DNA from: a virus
Taxonomy: Duplodnaviria; Heunggongvirae; Uroviricota; Caudoviricetes
Strand: one strand, 5' to 3'
DNA length: 6,981 nt
Virus record (IMG/VR): IMGVR_UViG_2648501669_000014
Part shown: positions 8 through 6,981 of the stretch, one piece after another
Layout of the letters: each line of letters opens with the position of its first letter
Position numbering within the stretch: the first letter of the stretch is position 1
Made by a program: the position numbers and the translations under genes
The notes under the pieces: generated by a model
Told to the model about the DNA's origin: nothing
The model's database searches: none
What the model saw: the letters and a program-made list of their open reading frames with translations, nothing else

Positions 8-352
8 TTGACCACAACAATTAGCCTGATTCGAAACAAGCAATTCGATAAATCTGATGTGAAAATCGAGATGGTTTTCCTTAACCCCAACACGGGCAAG
101 GTTGAAACTACTTACCCTGTTTTCCGTGGGGTAGTCGATTCCATCGGTATTAACATCGAACATGAAGATGATGAGTGTAAAAACGAATCAGAATTTCAGC
201 TTAATAGTATCTGGGAAGTTCTAGATAAAAACGCTCGTAGTCATGCCTCCGATGGTATCCACCGATCCTATGTTGGAAACGAGAACGATCTATTCTTCTC
301 TCGTGCCGGGAAGTGGCAAAGCGAGTCGAAGTGGTTTAGCTCTAAGAAATAA
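8..352 (+). CDS. Hypothetical protein in the tail module (start uncertain: TTG 8, GTG 59 or ATG 71)
   Basis: Open frame ending TAA 350..352. All three + frames have stops within nt 1..24, so the gene starts inside the window. No clear SD before any candidate start. No HxH (JAB) or Cys cluster seen. Sits directly upstream of the K-like gene. Confidence 0.45.
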   Translation: MTTTISLIRNKQFDKSDVKIEMVFLNPNTGKVETTYPVFRGVVDSIGINIEHEDDECKNESEFQLNSIWEVLDKNARSHASDGIHRSYVGNENDLFFSRAGKWQSESKWFSSKK

Positions 353-398
353 TCCCTTCTCCCTAAGCCTAGTAAATAACAGCATGGAGGTATTCAAC

Positions 399-818
399 AT
401 GCTAAAAACTAGGCTTATCACCGATTACATCAATTCTTTAATAGGTCAGGAGTTCGTTCAAGGCGAGAATGATTGCAATCTCATTGCATGTAAGATCATC
501 GATATTCTCGCTGGTACTGACCTATATAATTCTCTTTATAAAAAATATTCAACTAAAGAAGAAGGCTTGAAAATCTGCAAAGAATTAAGCGGATATTCAA
601 ACATCCTTCAACCAATAAAGAAACATTTCAAATTAGTCACTGATGATTTACAGGACGGCGACTTACTGGTCACAGCCCACAAATTAGGAAACCGTAATTA
701 TTATTCCGTAGTTCCTCATTATTCCGGTTATGGCCTCGTTGAAGAAGATGGTATCTGGATGACCATTCCTGTTTCAGACATTGACTATGAACAAGTTTAT
801 AGATTCGGGGGTGAATAA
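399..818 (+). CDS. Tail assembly protein K-like NlpC/P60 (C40) cysteine peptidase, 139 aa
   Basis: ATG 399 lies 8 nt after GGAGG (386..390). The product has a D-C-N-L-I catalytic-Cys-like motif near the N-terminus and a later GDLLVTAH/VVPHY region consistent with the NlpC/P60 Cys...His...His order. Stop TAA 816..818 overlaps the next ATG (TAATG). Position before the J-like gene matches lambda K. No JAB/MPN motif present. Confidence 0.75.
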   Translation: MLKTRLITDYINSLIGQEFVQGENDCNLIACKIIDILAGTDLYNSLYKKYSTKEEGLKICKELSGYSNILQPIKKHFKLVTDDLQDGDLLVTAHKLGNRNYYSVVPHYSGYGLVEEDGIWMTIPVSDIDYEQVYRFGGE

Positions 819-3800
819 TGGGATTTGAAATATTGGTAGGCGCGGTGATCGCTGGTGCTTCGGCGGGGATGGCGGCAGCCGCAACATTTTCTGTTATGAC
901 CGCAGTCGCTATCGGTATGGCTGCTGGTGCAATGACCTTGATCGCTTCCACTGTAGGCGCACCAAAAACACCTAAAGTACAAAGCCCAGATAATGCGGTG
1001 ACACTAGGAACATCAAACGATCCGAAGACAGTATTACCCGTTCTTTTCGGTGTTACCCGTACTGGTACAAACTGCGTTTACAAAGCAATTTCTAAAAGAG
1101 AAAACAATAAGTTAGTGCAAATCTTCGCTGTAGCAGAGGGTGAAATCGACCACTACAAAGCACTGTTTATCGATAATAAAAATGTTCTTGTTGGTAAGAA
1201 CATGACGATCCGTGATGGCATTCTCGATAAGGGCAACATTAAAGAAGAATACCGGAAAGTGTTGGAGGTTGAGTTCCGCACGGGTAAGAATCCTAACACC
1301 GCTTTGTCACTGGCAAAACAGCATTTAGGCTCAGACTGGACCGATGCTTACAAGGGTAACGGCATTGCAACCATGTGTATTGTGTTACGTCGTGATGACA
1401 AATCTCTTGCTGCTGGTGTTGATATCCTTCAACCAAATAGCCAAGTGGCAGTCGATGTTATGGGCTTAAAGATTCGTAACCTTGAAACCAATGCTATTGA
1501 GGCTAGCACTAACGGCGTGGACCAGATTTTCCACTACCTAACAAATGAAAAATATGGCTTATCCGTACCAATTGAAAACATTAACGTTGATTCATTCCTG
1601 AAAGTACGTAAGCAAGTACGCCAGATGGATTTGCATTCAAACGGTGCATGTGATCCGAACGCCAGCTTTAAAGAGAACTTAACTAGCCTTATGCAGACTT
1701 TCGGCGGGGTGATGTTCGAATCCTTCGGAAGAATTACCCTGAAACTGGATGCTCCTGATATTGTTAAGCATACCTTCAATGAAGACAATATCATGATGGG
1801 TAAGGTATCACTGAAAACAGGTGGCACTAACGGTTATTTCAATACCATTAACGCGATGTATCAGGAACCATCAATTGACTATTCCGAGCAAATGCTACGT
1901 TATCCGGCTGATGCTGAAAACGATGCTACTATTCGTCAAGATGGTCGAATTATCGCTAAAGATATTGAATATCGTTTTGTTAAGTCTAAAGCCCAGATTG
2001 ATAAACTTGCGAGTGTAGAACGAAATAAATCTCGTATCACTCAGGTTATCAGCTTTATGACTACTGACGCATTCACTGCCGAAGTTTGGGACGTTATCAG
2101 CGTAACCTATGATGAATTGAAACTGAATAATTCACTTTGGCGTATTACCGCAATTGATCGTTCTATTGATTCTGGTATTGCTGGGATGATGACTATCACC
2201 GCTACAGAATATAATTCTCAGGTTTATACTGACCTGAACTATGCGGCAACTCCAGACAATAGACCAAGTGGTTTACCGGATTCAATGACAGTACAGAAGC
2301 CTACTAATTTCAGAATTAAGGCAACTGGCGAGACGATTTACGGTAAAAACGTTACTTTGACATGGGATGCACCGGAAGATTTTAACCGCTACGGCTTCCA
2401 GATTGATTACCGTGTAAGCGGATCACCTAACTGGATTAAGTTGGGACAGACTTCACAGCAAATTTTCAGTGTCAATGCACTGGCAAAAGATCGTTCCTAC
2501 GATTATCGAGTTTGTGCTTTCGGTATCATCGCGCGATCCGATTGGGTAGAACTGGTTAACCAGAATCCTACCGTTACCTATGAATTGCCGACTCCGGTTA
2601 TTCGAATCAAAAATCAGGGTAGCACGCCAGGAACTTTCGAAGGTAATGATCTGATTATCGAATGGGAAAACCAGCAACAATTAGATGTGATGATCAACGG
2701 TGAAACTAACAAGTTTAGTGACCTGTTTGAAGCATACATTATCAAGGTGACTAACAAGGCTGGTAAGTCTATTCAGTACCGTACCCGCGATCCTGAATCA
2801 TGGACTTATACGCTTGATATGAACCAGTTTAACGGCCTTTCGCGTCAACTGACGGTAGAAGTATCAGCTAAGGGCTATAACAACTCAGAGAGCGCCCCAG
2901 CGCGTTTAGTGGCTATCAACCCACAACATAAGCCAATGAAAGGTTTTAGTGCGCGTGGTGGCTTTAATACTGCGTTTGTTAGCTGGGCGGATGACGTAGA
3001 ACATGACTATGCAGGGTCAATCATCCAGTATGCAACCGACAACACTTTCTCAGATGCAAGGGCAGTAAGCACGAATAGTGTTAGCCATACTTCCTTTGAT
3101 ATTGCTGACGGTGATTATTATATCCGTGGTGCTCACTACGATATTTTCGGTATGGATGATGCTGTTTGGTCTGAACCGTATTTCATGCAAATGAAATCTA
3201 CCATTAGCTGGGACGATCAGGACAAAGAAGCACTGGAAGACCTGATTGGTTTACAAGATCGCTTAGATGAAACCATCGCTGATGCTATTGCTCAAGCTGG
3301 CGCTAATGCCGATGCTAAAATTGATGCAATGCATAAGCAAATCACTACCGAGACGGGTAAAACTGTTCAAGCCTCAGCCGATACCTTAAAGAGTCTGATT
3401 GCTTCTGGTGATAAGGCAAGTTCAACTAAGATTGATCAGGTTAAAGCTGAACTGAAAGGCGATATCACCAAAGAAGTTAGCGCCTCCGCTACAACCCTGA
3501 AACAAGCTATTGCTACCAGTGAAGCAGCAAGCGCAAGTAAGATTGACCAAGTTCGGGTAGAAATGGATGGCAAGATTGCTGGTGTGAATCAGGAAGCGGA
3601 CGTTAAGATCGATGCTTTGAAGGGAACCATTAACAGCAAATACAATCTAGCAGTTAATGCAGATGGTCGCGTGGCTGGCATTCACATGAGCGCAACTAAC
3701 GATCCGGCACAACCGACTAAAATCATCTTTACGGCTGATAAAATTGCTGTAGCTCCGCAGAACGGGACCGATGTTTGCCCGTTTGGTATCGAAGGTAACA

Positions 3801-4594
3801 AGGTTTATCTCGATAATGCGATGATTCGTAATGCCTCAATCGGATCAGCACAGATTACTGATGCTAGTATCACCACGGCTAAAATTGGCAATGCTGCGAT
3901 CAATTCAGCGAAAATCCAAGACGGCGCGATCACCAACGCCAAGATTGTAAATGGCGCAATTGATAACGCTAAAATCGGTAACTATATCCAGTCTTCCAAC
4001 TGGAACGGATCTACCGGATGGCATATCAATAAGAACGGTAGTGCTACGTTCATGAACGCTACCGTTAAAGGTAATATCACGGCTGATTCCGGTACTCTGA
4101 ACAACGTCACGATTAACTCTAGCTGTGTTATTAAGGGTATGCTTGAAGCTACTCAGGTTAAGGGTGATTTCGTTAAGGTGATTGGTCGTAAGTTCCCACA
4201 CCGTGATGTTAACGTTGATAATGGTTATGGTGGCTATCCGCAAGGTACAGTAACCGTTCGCGTTGAAGATGATCACAAGTTCGATCGTCAAATCGTTATT
4301 CCGGCAATTAGTTTTGGTGGATTGCGAGCGCGTGAAGGGTCGAACAATAATACCTATTACGACACCTGTCGCCTGATTGTTCGTAAGAATGGGTCAGAGT
4401 TGTATAATAGGGCGTATGGCGGTAATACTGGTCTTTACTCAGGTGTTATTGATATGCCAGCGGGTAAAGGTGCTGTGACCTTGACCTTTGAAGTGCAATC
4501 AAGCGCAATCAACAACTGGACGCCTAGCACATGGATCAGTGATTTAACTGTAATGGTAACTAAAAAAGCTACTACGGGTATTACTGTTTCTTAA
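818..4594 (+). CDS. Central tail fibre / host specificity protein, lambda gpJ family (1258 aa), with a gpI-C-terminal-like hydrophobic N-terminal module
   Basis: Uninterrupted 3777-nt ORF with GGGGG SD at 806..810. The C-terminal ~180 aa are colinear with my recollection of the lambda J C-terminus (SGTLNNVTI, DDHKFDRQIVIP, VIDMPAGKGAVTLTF, VMVTKK...GITVS versus lambda SGTLSNVTI, DDHPFDRQIVVLP, IVDMPAGRGNVILTF, VMVIKK...GISVV). Central FN3-like repeats (about 2260..3200). The first ~95 aa are a Gly/Ala-rich hydrophobic stretch ending in VLPVLFG, resembling the lambda gpI C-terminus (VLPVLYG). Confidence 0.93.
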   Translation: MGFEILVGAVIAGASAGMAAAATFSVMTAVAIGMAAGAMTLIASTVGAPKTPKVQSPDNAVTLGTSNDPKTVLPVLFGVTRTGTNCVYKAISKRENNKLVQIFAVAEGEIDHYKALFIDNKNVLVGKNMTIRDGILDKGNIKEEYRKVLEVEFRTGKNPNTALSLAKQHLGSDWTDAYKGNGIATMCIVLRRDDKSLAAGVDILQPNSQVAVDVMGLKIRNLETNAIEASTNGVDQIFHYLTNEKYGLSVPIENINVDSFLKVRKQVRQMDLHSNGACDPNASFKENLTSLMQTFGGVMFESFGRITLKLDAPDIVKHTFNEDNIMMGKVSLKTGGTNGYFNTINAMYQEPSIDYSEQMLRYPADAENDATIRQDGRIIAKDIEYRFVKSKAQIDKLASVERNKSRITQVISFMTTDAFTAEVWDVISVTYDELKLNNSLWRITAIDRSIDSGIAGMMTITATEYNSQVYTDLNYAATPDNRPSGLPDSMTVQKPTNFRIKATGETIYGKNVTLTWDAPEDFNRYGFQIDYRVSGSPNWIKLGQTSQQIFSVNALAKDRSYDYRVCAFGIIARSDWVELVNQNPTVTYELPTPVIRIKNQGSTPGTFEGNDLIIEWENQQQLDVMINGETNKFSDLFEAYIIKVTNKAGKSIQYRTRDPESWTYTLDMNQFNGLSRQLTVEVSAKGYNNSESAPARLVAINPQHKPMKGFSARGGFNTAFVSWADDVEHDYAGSIIQYATDNTFSDARAVSTNSVSHTSFDIADGDYYIRGAHYDIFGMDDAVWSEPYFMQMKSTISWDDQDKEALEDLIGLQDRLDETIADAIAQAGANADAKIDAMHKQITTETGKTVQASADTLKSLIASGDKASSTKIDQVKAELKGDITKEVSASATTLKQAIATSEAASASKIDQVRVEMDGKIAGVNQEADVKIDALKGTINSKYNLAVNADGRVAGIHMSATNDPAQPTKIIFTADKIAVAPQNGTDVCPFGIEGNKVYLDNAMIRNASIGSAQITDASITTAKIGNAAINSAKIQDGAITNAKIVNGAIDNAKIGNYIQSSNWNGSTGWHINKNGSATFMNATVKGNITADSGTLNNVTINSSCVIKGMLEATQVKGDFVKVIGRKFPHRDVNVDNGYGGYPQGTVTVRVEDDHKFDRQIVIPAISFGGLRAREGSNNNTYYDTCRLIVRKNGSELYNRAYGGNTGLYSGVIDMPAGKGAVTLTFEVQSSAINNWTPSTWISDLTVMVTKKATTGITVS
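3301..3625 (+). repeat. Imperfect periodic repeats (about 111-114 nt, 37-38 aa) encoding a KID-x-[VA] motif-bearing, Ala/Ser/Thr/Lys-rich, probably helical segment of the J-like protein
   Basis: AKIDAM (about 3313), TKIDQV (about 3428), SKIDQV (about 3539) and VKIDAL (about 3604) recur with similar flanking ...SA.TLK..IA.S context. The DNA pair actaagattgatcaggtt / agtaagattgaccaagtt is visible directly. Confidence 0.6.
3818..3982 (+). repeat. In-frame tandem 30-nt repeats (5-6 copies) encoding a 10-aa unit A-K-I-x-[ND]-[AG]-A-I-x-x inside the J-like gene
   Basis: Translation reads ...AMIRNASIGS AQITDASITT AKIGNAAINS AKIQDGAITN AKIVNGAIDN AKIGNY... with codon boundaries at 3818, 3848, 3878, 3908, 3938, 3968. 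Confidence 0.85.
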
Positions 4595-4612
4595 AAATTT
4601 AATTTTAATAAT

Positions 4613-4655
4613 TAATCCCGCTTAATTCTTTTGAGTTAGGCGGGATTATTTTTAT
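4613..4655 (+). terminator. Rho-independent terminator downstream of the J-like gene
   Basis: taatcccgc (4613..4621) pairs with gcgggatta (4640..4648); the stem extends by U-G/A-T pairs to about 13 bp with a roughly 10-nt loop. Followed by TTTTTAT (4649..4655). Lies 19 nt after the J stop. Confidence 0.8.
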
Positions 4656-4698
4656 CTAAATAATTCTGCCATGAAATTATAAAAATATCGGGGGCGTA

Positions 4699-4977
4699 AT
4701 GACTGAAATTATATATGGCGGTATCGGTGTTATCGCCTTAATTTGCGGTGGTCTTTGGAGACTTCACCGAAATCAATTAGCAACTGAAAATAGGTTATCT
4801 AAATTGGAATCCAGCGACGCATTGTTAAACCAGAAGTTTGAGACGATGCAGAATAACCATACTCAGATTGCTGAACGTGTTTACCAAATGGAACAAACAC
4901 TACACGGTATAGAGAAGAAAGTGGTTGCGATGGATGCTAAATTTGACCAAGTTCTCGACATACTCAAACAAAAATAA
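4699..4977 (+). CDS. Small membrane-anchored protein, 92 aa: N-terminal TM helix plus C-terminal predicted coiled coil; function unknown
   Basis: ATG 4699 is preceded by GGGGG (4690..4694). Residues 4-20 (IIYGGIGVIALICGGLW) are hydrophobic and followed by RLHR, which by the positive-inside rule puts the C-terminus in the cytoplasm. The remainder is heptad-like and charged (LSKLESSDALLNQKFETMQ...). Confidence 0.7.
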   Translation: MTEIIYGGIGVIALICGGLWRLHRNQLATENRLSKLESSDALLNQKFETMQNNHTQIAERVYQMEQTLHGIEKKVVAMDAKFDQVLDILKQK

Positions 4978-4995
4978 TAATAAAGGGGTGAATAT

Positions 4996-5166
4996 ATGAA
5001 GAATAAACTTAAGAAATATTTTGGTTATCTCTTGATTGTCGCCCTCACTTATAACGTAGCTATTAGACCTCTGCTAACGTCCTTTGGGCTTGAACTCCCG
5101 GCTATGACCGTGGATGAACAATTGCTAAGGACACTGGCGGGGGTCTTTTCGTTATTAGGGGGCTAA
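4996..5166 (+). CDS. Small hydrophobic protein, 56 aa (not in the supplied ORF track); function unknown
   Basis: ATG 4996 lies 7 nt after AAAGGGG (4982..4988). My translation is MKNKLKKYFGYLLIVALTYNVAIRPLLTSFGLELPAMTVDEQLLRTLAGVFSLLGG, ending TAA 5164..5166. Basic N-terminus then a hydrophobic helix; no Cys, so not a lipoprotein. Stop is 1 nt before the next ATG. Confidence 0.5.
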   Translation: MKNKLKKYFGYLLIVALTYNVAIRPLLTSFGLELPAMTVDEQLLRTLAGVFSLLGG

Positions 5167-5167
5167 C

Positions 5168-5851
5168 ATGGCAACCAGTACCAATAAACGAAACGCTCTA
5201 AGGACTAAGAAAGCGTTACGGCAATGGTCTGAAAAGGCAACCGATACATTCGAAAGGGCACTAGGGGAAGGGGCGATCTTTGCTTCCAGAGCACTCCAGA
5301 AGAAGATTAACAAGAATGTTGATAGACCTACTCGATGGACTCAACAAGCTGTAGGTAATACCAACTACAAGAACCGATCAGGGACGAGACACCAAATCTT
5401 CATCAAGGGCGCAAGGGATAAGGACAAGAAGATCGGCAGTCAGGATGACTATCTGAAACACTATTTCGATGGTGGCAAAATCAATAAGCTAGTGCCAATC
5501 GCTAACGGTAAGGTCTTAGACGCCCACGGGAACATTAAGGCCATCAAAGGCGGTAAGATGATGCGTAACATCGAAAACGGCAACTTCATCAAGGTAGAAA
5601 ACAAGGAAGGAACTTTTATCATGAAGAAGTACAAGCCTAAGAAATCCCGAACCAAACGCGCTAGGAATGGATCGGCGGTGGCAAAACGTCGCTTAGAGAA
5701 ACGCATCCAGAAACAGAGTAAGCGAATTGTTGCCGTTAAGTCGGATAAAATTTCTACTCGTTATTCGACGCTAGGATCGTGGGAAAGCAACGAGGAAATG
5801 ATGCTTAAGAACATTAATAAGCACATTAAATCGCGCATGAGATACGTTTAA
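5168..5851 (+). CDS. Highly basic Lys/Arg-rich protein, 227 aa; function unknown (candidate nucleic-acid-binding or injected protein)
   Basis: ATG 5168 is preceded by GGGGG (5157..5161). Hand count is about 36 K and 21 R against about 19 D+E, so strongly net positive. No motif I recognise. The antisense ORF 5461..5706 is rejected. Confidence 0.75.
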   Translation: MATSTNKRNALRTKKALRQWSEKATDTFERALGEGAIFASRALQKKINKNVDRPTRWTQQAVGNTNYKNRSGTRHQIFIKGARDKDKKIGSQDDYLKHYFDGGKINKLVPIANGKVLDAHGNIKAIKGGKMMRNIENGNFIKVENKEGTFIMKKYKPKKSRTKRARNGSAVAKRRLEKRIQKQSKRIVAVKSDKISTRYSTLGSWESNEEMMLKNINKHIKSRMRYV

Positions 5852-5861
5852 TCCATAAATA

Positions 5862-5883
5862 CCCTCATAGAATCTTATGGGGG
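5862..5883 (+). promoter_or_regulatory. Intergenic stem-loop that pairs with the SD of the 5890 gene (possible translational control or RNA-stability element)
   Basis: ccctcata (5862..5869) pairs with tatggggg (5876..5883), 8 bp including one U-G, loop gaatct. The right arm contains the GGGGG SD (5879..5883) 6 nt before ATG 5890. No U-tract follows, so it is not a typical terminator. Confidence 0.35.
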
Positions 5884-5889
5884 TATAAC

Positions 5890-6237
5890 ATGGCTAAAAA
5901 TATTTTCACTGAATTTCCTACTTATCCGGTCGATCAGCTTTCCGGTATTTTTATTAATGGCATTAGTCCAGAATCAATGACTTATGATTTTGAGGCGAAG
6001 AGAGTTAAACATAAACAATATAAAGAATGTATCCGCGATCATGAAAAAGGGACCGTGTTTTGTGTCGCTACATTGGCTAAACGTCCTAAGTATCGTTTTC
6101 GTGTCGGGCAAGAAGTCGATGTAGTTAATCCTTATAGTTTTAACTGTCTGGGTGATGCACGCGCGGTGTGTGTAGGCACAACTAATTACTACATTAAAGG
6201 ACTCAGATTTACCGGGTATATAATGGAATACATCTAA
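5890..6237 (+). CDS. Hypothetical protein, 115 aa; function unknown
   Basis: ATG 5890 with GGGGG SD. Last gene before the second terminator. The overlapping antisense ORF 5974..6318 lacks supporting signals. Confidence 0.65.
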   Translation: MAKNIFTEFPTYPVDQLSGIFINGISPESMTYDFEAKRVKHKQYKECIRDHEKGTVFCVATLAKRPKYRFRVGQEVDVVNPYSFNCLGDARAVCVGTTNYYIKGLRFTGYIMEYI

Positions 6238-6251
6238 CTCTAATAAATACG

Positions 6252-6280
6252 AGCGACCAATTTCGGTCGCTTTTTTATTT
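6252..6280 (+). terminator. Rho-independent terminator after the four-gene cassette
   Basis: agcgacc (6252..6258) pairs with ggtcgct (6265..6271), 7-bp GC-rich stem with a 6-nt loop, followed by TTTTTTATTT (to 6280). It abuts the GGAGG SD (6281..6285) of the next gene. Confidence 0.8.
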
Positions 6281-6289
6281 GGAGGAATC

Positions 6290-6739
6290 ATGGAGATTTT
6301 ATTTGCTGAATATATCAACTACACCGGATTTACAAGAAAAACGCCTCTTGACTATGAACCTATTGCCATTAAACGTTGTGATGAGTTGGGGTACATCTAT
6401 AACGGTTTTGTTGTGCCGTGGAAAGGGCAACATACACCCGTTTCTATAACCTGCAAGAAACATAGCACAACGCGAACAATTGCTTTCAAAACTCTTAAAA
6501 AACAAGGTGCGTGTCTTGAATGCTATAAAGAATCATTAAAACTTCCTAAGAAAAAGAATAGAGATAAGGAAGCTGTATTAGATAAAGCAAGCAATGTGCT
6601 GGAACGCAAAGATATGGTTTTAGTTGGATTGTTAGAAGATTATAAAGGATTAGACACAAAAGTTTCTTATAAGTGCAATTGCTGTGATACTGCATACGAA
6701 ACCATAATCACTAGAATCATAAACGATGATGCTGGGTAG
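6290..6739 (+). CDS. Cys-rich protein with two tandem zinc-ribbon-like modules (at least 149 aa); 3' end interrupted by IS2, likely C-terminally truncated
   Basis: ATG 6290 lies 5 nt after GGAGG. Contains C-x2-H-x16-C-x2-C (CKKH...CLEC) and a second related module (VSITC... / VSYKCNCC...). The terminal TAG (6737..6739) is the first 3 nt of the IS2 left end, so the native C-terminus is missing. Confidence 0.7.
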   Translation: MEILFAEYINYTGFTRKTPLDYEPIAIKRCDELGYIYNGFVVPWKGQHTPVSITCKKHSTTRTIAFKTLKKQGACLECYKESLKLPKKKNRDKEAVLDKASNVLERKDMVLVGLLEDYKGLDTKVSYKCNCCDTAYETIITRIINDDAG

Positions 6740-6981
6740 ACTGGCCCCCTGAATCTCCAGACAACCAGTATCACTTAAATAAGTGATAGTCTTAATACTA
6801 GTTTTTAGACTAGTCATTGGAGAACAGATGATTGATGTCTTAGGGCCGGAGAAACGCAGACGGCGTACCACACAGGAAAAGATCGCAATTGTTCAGCAGA
6901 GCTTTGAACCGGGGATGACGGTCTCCCTCGTTGCCCGGCAACATGGTGTAGCAGCCAGCCAGTTAAGTCGCTGGCCTACAC
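6737..6981 (+). mobile_element. IS2 (IS3 family) insertion sequence, left end; continues beyond the window
   Basis: Sequence from 6737 (TAGACTGGCCCCCTGAATCTCCAGACAACCAGTATCACTTAAATAAGTGATAGTC...) matches my recollection of the IS2 left terminus and leader. It is followed by the insC start. The left terminal inverted repeat is about the first 41 bp (6737..6777). Confidence 0.9.
6828..6981 (+). CDS. insC: IS2 transposase OrfA (InsC), 5' portion; 3' end outside the window
   Basis: Translation [46 protein letters not shown]... matches remembered IS2 InsC. ATG 6828 is preceded by GGAGAA. Confidence 0.9.

Follow-up and report, generated by a model that had tools for sequence, protein, structure and literature searches.

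The window analysed here, the whole 6,981-nucleotide (nt) stretch from IMG/VR virus record IMGVR_UViG_2648501669_000014, lies in the late region of a siphovirus-type Escherichia coli prophage of ~35 kb with a serine integrase, and it raises the question of what two small membrane proteins, of 92 and 56 amino acids (aa), do directly behind the last tail gene. An initial annotation, made from the letters of the window, had described such a pair at 4699-5166 and had proposed that it fits exclusion factors or membrane-acting effectors. Both open reading frames (ORFs) were located where it had placed them:

4699..4977, + strand: gene for the 92-aa protein (ATG start; GGGGG Shine-Dalgarno at 4690-4694; RefSeq 'hypothetical protein' WP_021515509.1)
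4996..5166, + strand: gene for the 56-aa protein (ATG start; AAGGGG Shine-Dalgarno at 4983-4988; RefSeq 'hypothetical protein' WP_001406248.1)

From genomic context rather than from homology, we infer that the pair is a two-component holin, or a holin and its regulator, heading a lysis module of the prophage that has no recognisable spanin, a reading to which we assign a probability of roughly 0.55. On this most likely function, the pair would represent a new sequence family whose layout varies on an established type of lysis system.

Both ORFs are real genes under purifying selection. Between E. coli and Salmonella, the ratio of nonsynonymous to synonymous substitution rates (dN/dS) is 0.10 for the 56-aa gene, and the corresponding comparison of the 92-aa gene gives nonsynonymous and synonymous proportions (pN and pS) of 0.149 and 0.81, the latter being saturated; between the most distant E. 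coli-type alleles of the 92-aa gene, dN/dS is 0.076. Every distinct DNA allele recovered is intact (25/25 for the 92-aa gene and 11/11 for the 56-aa gene). The exact proteins occur in 3666 blocks (92-aa) and 5920 blocks (56-aa) of an assembly index, and thousands of assemblies from E. coli and Salmonella contain the pair.

The 92-aa product had been described as one N-terminal transmembrane segment (TM) followed by RLHR and a heptad-rich tail, and this layout held up on closer analysis. Its sole hydrophobic segment spans residues 4-20 (nt 4708-4758; IIYGGIGVIALICGGLW), is Gly-rich with a Kyte-Doolittle value of 2.0, and is followed immediately by RLHR, within the conserved juxtamembrane motif GGLW(R/K)LHRNQ. 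Residues 26-92 (nt 4774-4974) lie in a single uninterrupted heptad register with hydrophobic residues at 15 of 20 a/d positions, and AlphaFold2, supplied with the family alignment, modelled residues 2-91 as one helix (predicted local distance difference test, pLDDT, 84). When this single-helix model was compared with BFVD using Foldseek, no match was returned. For both proteins of the pair, topology was derived from the positive-inside rule and a hydropathy window. Because the 92-aa family carries a conserved charge bias, with an acidic or neutral N-flank and a C-flank of +1 to +3 in 10 of 11 members, the predicted orientation is N-out/C-in with a cytoplasmic coiled coil, in agreement with the placement originally suggested. 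In its size, in its TM at residues 4-20 and in its charged helical tail, the protein has the features looked for in a holin with a charged C-terminus.

The basic N-terminus and hydrophobic core reported for the 56-aa protein were likewise recovered. An MKNKLKK N-terminus precedes a single hydrophobic core at about residues 8-28, the TM contains an invariant (Y/W)N...P motif, and the remainder consists of an acidic C-side and a hydrophobic tail (...SLLGG), with 0 Cys in the whole protein. This gives it one TM, at least one being expected of a holin. The charge bias of the family is the reverse of that of the 92-aa family, with +3 to +6 on the N side, and because of this strongly basic N-flank the 56-aa protein is predicted to be N-in/C-out. 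By direct reading of the sequence, a dual-start antiholin motif of the S107/S105 type is absent from both genes.

The pair had also been said to stand at the head of a cassette, and it does: in uninterrupted copies of the prophage, the gene order is J, a hairpin, the 92-aa gene, the 56-aa gene, a gene for a basic 227-aa protein, a gene for a 115-aa protein and a gene for a 117-aa Peptidase_M15_3 endolysin, followed by variable genes and a recombinase on the opposite strand. The elements of this arrangement that flank the pair within the window are:

818..4594, + strand: J-like tail tip/host-specificity protein, 1258 aa (Pfam Ig_GpJ_C 7e-34, Phage_Tail_Tip 7e-21), the last tail gene, directly 5' of the module
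4613..4648, + strand: intrinsic-terminator-like hairpin in the interval between J and the module, a 16-bp stem followed by a T run
5168..5851, + strand: gene for the very basic 227-aa protein (isoelectric point 10.8; 57 K+R, or 25% K+R), a conserved module member
5890..6237, + strand: gene for the conserved soluble 115-aa protein, with the M15_3 endolysin gene 9 nt downstream in intact prophages

The genes are tightly spaced, with intergenic gaps of 18 nt (92/56), 1 nt (56/227) and 38 nt (227/115) in the window; at locus L001, the endolysin gene begins 9 nt past the 115-aa gene, and most related prophages have the same 9-nt spacing. In the strain from which the window derives, the endolysin lies outside the window because an endonuclease-like gene was inserted after the 115-aa gene and then cut by the insertion sequence IS2.

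This arrangement is highly conserved. Without exception, the 45 loci of the E. coli/Salmonella/Providencia/Proteus type combine J, the 92-aa, 56-aa, 227-aa and 115-aa genes and the M15 endolysin gene, and the five-gene module (92-aa, 56-aa, basic 186-227-aa, 115-aa, endolysin) is also present in Salmonella (L015), Providencia (L014), Proteus (L046) and Buttiauxella-type (L045, L055-L057) prophages. Positioned last in the late operon and beside the serine recombinase, the module consists of genes that either overlap or are separated by very small gaps. The occupant of the endolysin slot varies by family, being M15_3 in E. coli (L001 11550-11903), M15_4 in Buttiauxella (L045 8358-8741) and Phage_lysozyme in Symbiopectobacterium (L048 7327-7800), which to judge from the sequences is a clear case of non-orthologous replacement among otherwise homologous modules. 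Members of the Buttiauxella-type subgroup have overlapping first and second genes and an M15_4 peptidase that is unrelated to M15_3.

Most informative about function are three further contexts, which are rearranged or unrelated. In Symbiopectobacterium prophage L048, J is followed by DUF6453, an 87-aa TM-plus-coiled-coil relative and, directly downstream of the latter, a signal-less Phage_lysozyme; a GIY-YIG endonuclease, homologues of the 227-aa protein (196 aa) and of the 115-aa protein (121 aa) and, last, a 97-aa protein complete the locus. The C-terminal half of this 97-aa protein aligns with the 56-aa family (hhalign probability 87%); a tblastn search with the 87-aa protein gave chance matches only. 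The locus of Escherichia phage DCP80 (L053) starts with a J-like gene and continues, in this order, with genes for a 153-aa TM-plus-coiled-coil protein, endonuclease VII, a 57-aa protein resembling the 56-aa protein, homologues of the 227-aa and 115-aa proteins and an annotated 'endolysin', which, judged by eye from its sequence, appears to be T4-lysozyme-like (Phage_lysozyme type). Finally, on a high-GC metagenomic phage contig (L047), a 97-aa TM-plus-coiled-coil relative termed P0092 heads a cluster that continues with a two-TM 75-aa protein, a one-TM 48-aa protein and an M15_3 endolysin; among the called genes in the ~3.5 kb upstream of this cluster, no tail-family matches were found. Profile comparison with hhalign linked P0092 (94.7%) and the DCP80 153-aa protein (62%) to the 92-aa family. 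Gene order, endolysin family and surroundings thus vary across the contexts, and what accompanies the TM-plus-coiled-coil protein throughout is an endolysin.

The DCP80 record (PQ671644.1, 16671-31003) is filed as a 141-kb Gaprivervirus (T4-like) yet carries a siphovirus-type J-like gene and the module; chimeric assembly or unusual mosaicism could explain this.

By hydropathy, none of the four endolysin types examined has an N-terminal hydrophobic segment, and a holin is therefore required. When hydropathy was applied to all annotated proteins of the intact prophage, TM segments were found in the tape measure protein, in the N-terminus of J, in a 268-aa Rha-family regulator (one segment), in two signal-peptide proteins near the ends and in the pair. 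Setting aside the two end-located signal-peptide proteins, the intact 35-kb prophage encodes no small membrane proteins besides the 92-aa and 56-aa proteins; these two share a late unit with an endolysin that has no export signal, and no other holin candidate is present.

Transcription of the module was considered from the interval between J and the pair. No sigma-70-like promoter was found on the + strand from the end of J to the start codon of the 92-aa gene (4595-4698), although a non-consensus promoter is conceivable there. At the equivalent position, a hairpin of different sequence occurs in Salmonella, Providencia, Proteus and phage DCP80. The DCP80 hairpin stands just 11 nt from the start codon, which leaves no space for a promoter, and the Buttiauxella-type loci are likewise without room for one. 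Because no promoter was found and the spacing in DCP80 is so short, the simplest reading is that the late transcript runs on into the module at its distal end, where the hairpin would serve as an attenuator.

These features suggest how the pair might act. Expression of the distal part of the late operon would supply both proteins together with the endolysin late in the lytic cycle. The 56-aa protein would insert N-in/C-out as a small holin subunit, and the 92-aa protein would insert N-out/C-in as its proposed partner, a co-holin or lysis timer. Because the predicted topologies of the two families are opposite, the Gly-rich TM of the 92-aa protein could lie antiparallel to the TM of the 56-aa protein, resembling the helices of a class II holin split over two polypeptides, and the cytoplasmic coiled coil of ~65 residues would drive oligomerisation. 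At a critical concentration, or upon loss of the proton-motive force, the assembly would open the inner membrane, and the signal-less M15 peptidase would then gain access to peptidoglycan. On the sequences, either protein could form the hole and the other set the timing.

The closest functional parallel to the pair appears to be the two-component holins of Bacillus phages. In PBSX (XhlA/XhlB) and SPP1 (gp24.1/gp26), a one-TM protein acts with a small two-TM holin, the two being harmless singly and lethal jointly (PMC6316719; PMC5589764), and the holin genes follow the tail genes together with a lysin (xhlA-xhlB-xlyA in PBSX; gp24.1, gp26 and gp25 in SPP1; PMC6316719, PMC5589764, PMC6834076). 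The resemblance lies in a one-TM protein with a helical soluble part beside a small hydrophobic protein, encoded in an operon with an endolysin, after the tail genes and at the prophage end; PBSX even has a soluble cassette protein of unknown role, XepA, whose counterparts here would be the 227-aa and 115-aa genes. The parallel has its limits, as XhlA and gp24.1 have a C-terminal TM (for XhlA, see PMC6316719) whereas that of the 92-aa protein is N-terminal, the two TM segments of XhlB contrast with the single clear TM of the 56-aa protein, and the host here is Gram-negative. Membership of the XhlA family (PF10779) was considered for the 92-aa protein and rejected, with no match at E<=0.1 and a TM at the opposite terminus.

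BhlA, encoded in the SPbeta bhlA-bhlB-blyA cluster beside a second small holin and a lysin, has an N-terminal TM, an acidic N-tail, basic post-TM residues and a coiled-coil C-terminus. The 92-aa protein shows the same arrangement and the same N-out/C-in prediction, a likeness of overall layout; it does not match the BhlA/UviB Pfam family (PF10960). Both the 92-aa protein (0.0088) and P0092 (0.0077) match phrog_1625 ('bacteriocin production or immunity'), which we assume to be the BhlA/UviB family, at values no better than those of many coiled-coil families. One-TM N-out/C-in proteins also occur in actinophage lysis cassettes, always alongside another TM protein, and in one such system, gp11 of D29, a coiled coil governs oligomerisation and the timing of lysis (PMC9671378). 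The actinophage proteins differ in belonging to an unrelated family and host; the Gordonia one-TM proteins have no coiled coil, and in D29 gp11 there are two TM segments. If the pair are lysis proteins, they would fill the place of the missing holin in a prophage family without a characterised isolate and would provide a Gram-negative counterpart to the Bacillus two-component holins.

Several points weigh against this assignment. Homology to a known holin or antiholin, which the initial annotation had named as evidence against itself, was not found for either protein: Pfam, NCBIfam and PDB searches gave no match to a validated holin, and the PHROG matches were either weak or to functionally uncharacterised families. 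Between the pair and the endolysin, the main lineage carries two uncharacterised genes that match 'tail' PHROGs weakly (phrog_1924, 'minor tail protein', for the 227-aa protein, at 5e-4 and 1e-3; phrog_10489, at 0.065). Most of the contexts belong to one prophage lineage, with only L047, L048 and L053 independent, and synteny may therefore partly reflect descent. Two of these three depend on P0092 and the DCP80 153-aa protein, whose homology to the 92-aa family, as scored by hhalign, rests on TM-plus-coiled-coil similarity and is thus prone to error. The strong hairpin between J and the module makes separate regulation possible. Finally, T-even phages, which have relatives of the 56-aa protein (described below), encode the T holin, and the 56-aa family therefore need not be a holin; this argues somewhat against the 56-aa protein as the hole-former.

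We next weighed other functions for the pair. T5 llp, phi80/N15 cor and T4 imm/sp are small envelope exclusion proteins encoded beside a receptor-binding gene, and cor, lom and llp-type genes often lie directly after J. The pair occupies just this site, and could by analogy comprise superinfection-exclusion or lysogenic-conversion membrane proteins that the lysogen expresses under a separate promoter and that interfere with adsorption or DNA entry of related phages. A strong terminator 5' of the pair, an AT-rich leader of 50 nt upstream of the 92-aa gene that could conceal a weak promoter, a local drop in GC to 0.35 and T-even relatives of the 56-aa protein without a known lysis role are all consistent with this possibility, yet we consider it unlikely. 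The known exclusion proteins are lipoproteins or secreted and are expressed independently, either by the lysogen or at an early stage of infection, whereas the pair is without a lipobox, is always present and is linked to an endolysin, and the promoter that exclusion would call for was not found in the window and has no space in DCP80 or the Buttiauxella-type loci. Nor is the distribution patchy, as the full module is found at every one of the 45 loci and it is instead the interval between endolysin and recombinase that varies. The pair is translationally packed with the genes downstream, PADLOC models gave no match, and relatives remain linked to an endolysin even where no tail genes are nearby (L047). 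Of the two roles originally offered for the pair, that of a membrane-acting effector is compatible with all of these findings and that of an exclusion factor is less likely, having gained no positive support; as the evidence for lysis is contextual, exclusion is disfavoured rather than refuted. Were the pair an exclusion system, it would be among the commonest in E. coli. A structural role, in which everything from J to the 115-aa gene is virion-associated or morphogenetic (tail-tip assembly or DNA-entry helpers) and the endolysin merely comes next, is a little harder still to credit. The pair does directly follow J in most loci, its 227-aa and 115-aa neighbours have the weak 'tail' matches given above, and the coiled-coil repeats resemble tail-fibre repeats retrieved by HMMER. 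In L047, however, the relative lies in a holin-type cluster beside the endolysin, with no tail-family match among the upstream called genes, and in Symbiopectobacterium it abuts the lysozyme, with the 196-aa and 121-aa genes lying beyond; siphovirus virions are not generally known to include small integral membrane proteins.

The architecture of the 92-aa protein, an N-terminal TM and a coiled coil, together with its location in a lysis module, also recalls lambda Rz, and the protein could be an Rz-like inner-membrane spanin subunit or another outer-membrane disrupter, with the 56-aa or another module protein as an unconventional partner. The intact prophage (L018) yielded no spanin, neither a u-spanin nor a coding-strand lipobox ORF, and a place for one is thus vacant. 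PHROG 'Rz-like spanin' families match the 92-aa protein weakly (phrog_739, 0.036) and the Symbiopectobacterium 87-aa relative better (3.8e-6 and 3.6e-5), but such matches are typical of any TM-plus-coiled-coil protein: an exhaustive HMMER profile search with the 92-aa family returned ~5 true clusters, the remainder being coiled-coil repeat proteins. Unlike Rz/Rz1, the pair includes no lipoprotein partner and stands at the head rather than the tail of its module. When the coding strands of the E. coli prophage and of seven cassette regions (the window, L001, L014 and L045-L048) were scanned, no embedded, overlapping or adjacent lipobox ORF turned up, and the 56-aa protein has no Cys, upholding the earlier verdict that this is not a spanin pair. 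The topology predicted by rule for 10 of 11 members is the reverse of that of Rz, and a protein of 92 aa leaves a short periplasmic part. We regard a spanin as the least probable of the functions considered. A more elaborate version of the two-component holin, in which the five-gene block would be a self-contained lysis system without a spanin in a widespread Enterobacterales prophage lineage, the pair forming an antiparallel split holin with a coiled-coil timer and the 227-aa and 115-aa proteins disrupting the outer membrane, is speculative and rather improbable. Its soluble endolysin, the lack of a recognisable spanin and the two conserved module proteins make the prophage a tractable system for studying how some Gram-negative phages breach the outer membrane.

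Sequence searches placed the pair in no known holin family. Pfam, NCBIfam, PADLOC and PDB sequence searches with the four module proteins (92, 56, 227 and 115 aa) returned nothing specific. Among 50,697 phage records, megablast of 4500-5900 found no sequenced phage isolate matching this region; tblastn of the 56-aa and 227-aa proteins against phage records gave no matches, and that of the 92-aa protein gave one chance-level match only (E=0.3). Wider locus searches recovered near-identical prophages only with the 56-aa family and no matches with the 227-aa family, and no literature was found on the prophage or on the protein accessions.

The 56-aa family nonetheless appears, from profile matches, to be of the phrog_2024 type (unknown function), which is matched by the 56-aa protein at E=0.0054 and by the 97-aa Symbiopectobacterium relative at 4e-11. 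The T-even relatives mentioned above are 65-aa membrane ORFs that have the motif (Y/W)N...P...G..LP in common with the 56-aa family. Flanked by gene 56 (dCTPase) and gene 61 (primase) and encoded on the other strand from these neighbours, they were found in 338 records from Mosigvirus, Gaprivervirus, Moonvirus and Klebsiella relatives (for example, L049 7920-8117 and L050 2486-2683). Assignment of the 56-aa protein to GTA_holin_3TM (PF11351) was rejected: the protein itself has no Pfam match, and the 97-aa relative scores E=0.052 (14.5 bits vs a cut-off of 24.8). Comparison of the 56-aa family with Oceanospirillum phage ORF26 and ICP1 TeaA by hhalign gave probabilities of 0.1-0.2%.

With respect to the two neighbours, a basic protein of 186-227 aa and a protein of 99-121 aa accompany the pair and the endolysin despite changes in order (window 5168-6237; L048 8223-9166; L053 6923-7787). 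A single-sequence structure model of the 115-aa protein reached a pLDDT of 32. On the other side of the pair, two hydrophobic segments rich in Ala and Gly lie within residues 1-46 of J (window 818-960), and the N-terminus faintly matches phrog_32, a tail assembly protein family (E=0.084), which suggests a fused gpI-like or membrane-interacting part at the N-terminus of J.

The remainder of the window, downstream of the 115-aa gene, is specific to the strain and contains:

6251..6272, + strand: terminator-like hairpin at the start of the strain-specific insertion, absent from L001
6290..6739, + strand: CapR-domain homing-endonuclease-like ORF, truncated by IS2 and not a module member (Pfam CapR 2e-7; phrog_681 endonuclease 3e-13)
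6738..6981, no strand assigned: end of IS2, beyond which lies the M15 endolysin gene of the source strain

Positions 20-6737 of the window match the chromosome of E. coli strain HCP5S3_I4 at 100%. An uninterrupted copy of the prophage is present in strain H2 (L018 5686-40850, ~35 kb), where it is integrated in hicB with a large serine recombinase at the boundary; in other strains, the prophage adjoins the csg locus (L013, L018 and L001-L012 cover both the integration site and the cargo described below). The GC content is ~40% over the whole prophage and ~0.40-0.45 in the window, where it dips to 0.35 across the 92-aa and 56-aa genes. The variable slot between endolysin and recombinase holds T4-like cargo, comprising Gp34/Gp38-type fibre parts, UvsW helicase, UvsY and CapR/MUG113 endonuclease-like genes.

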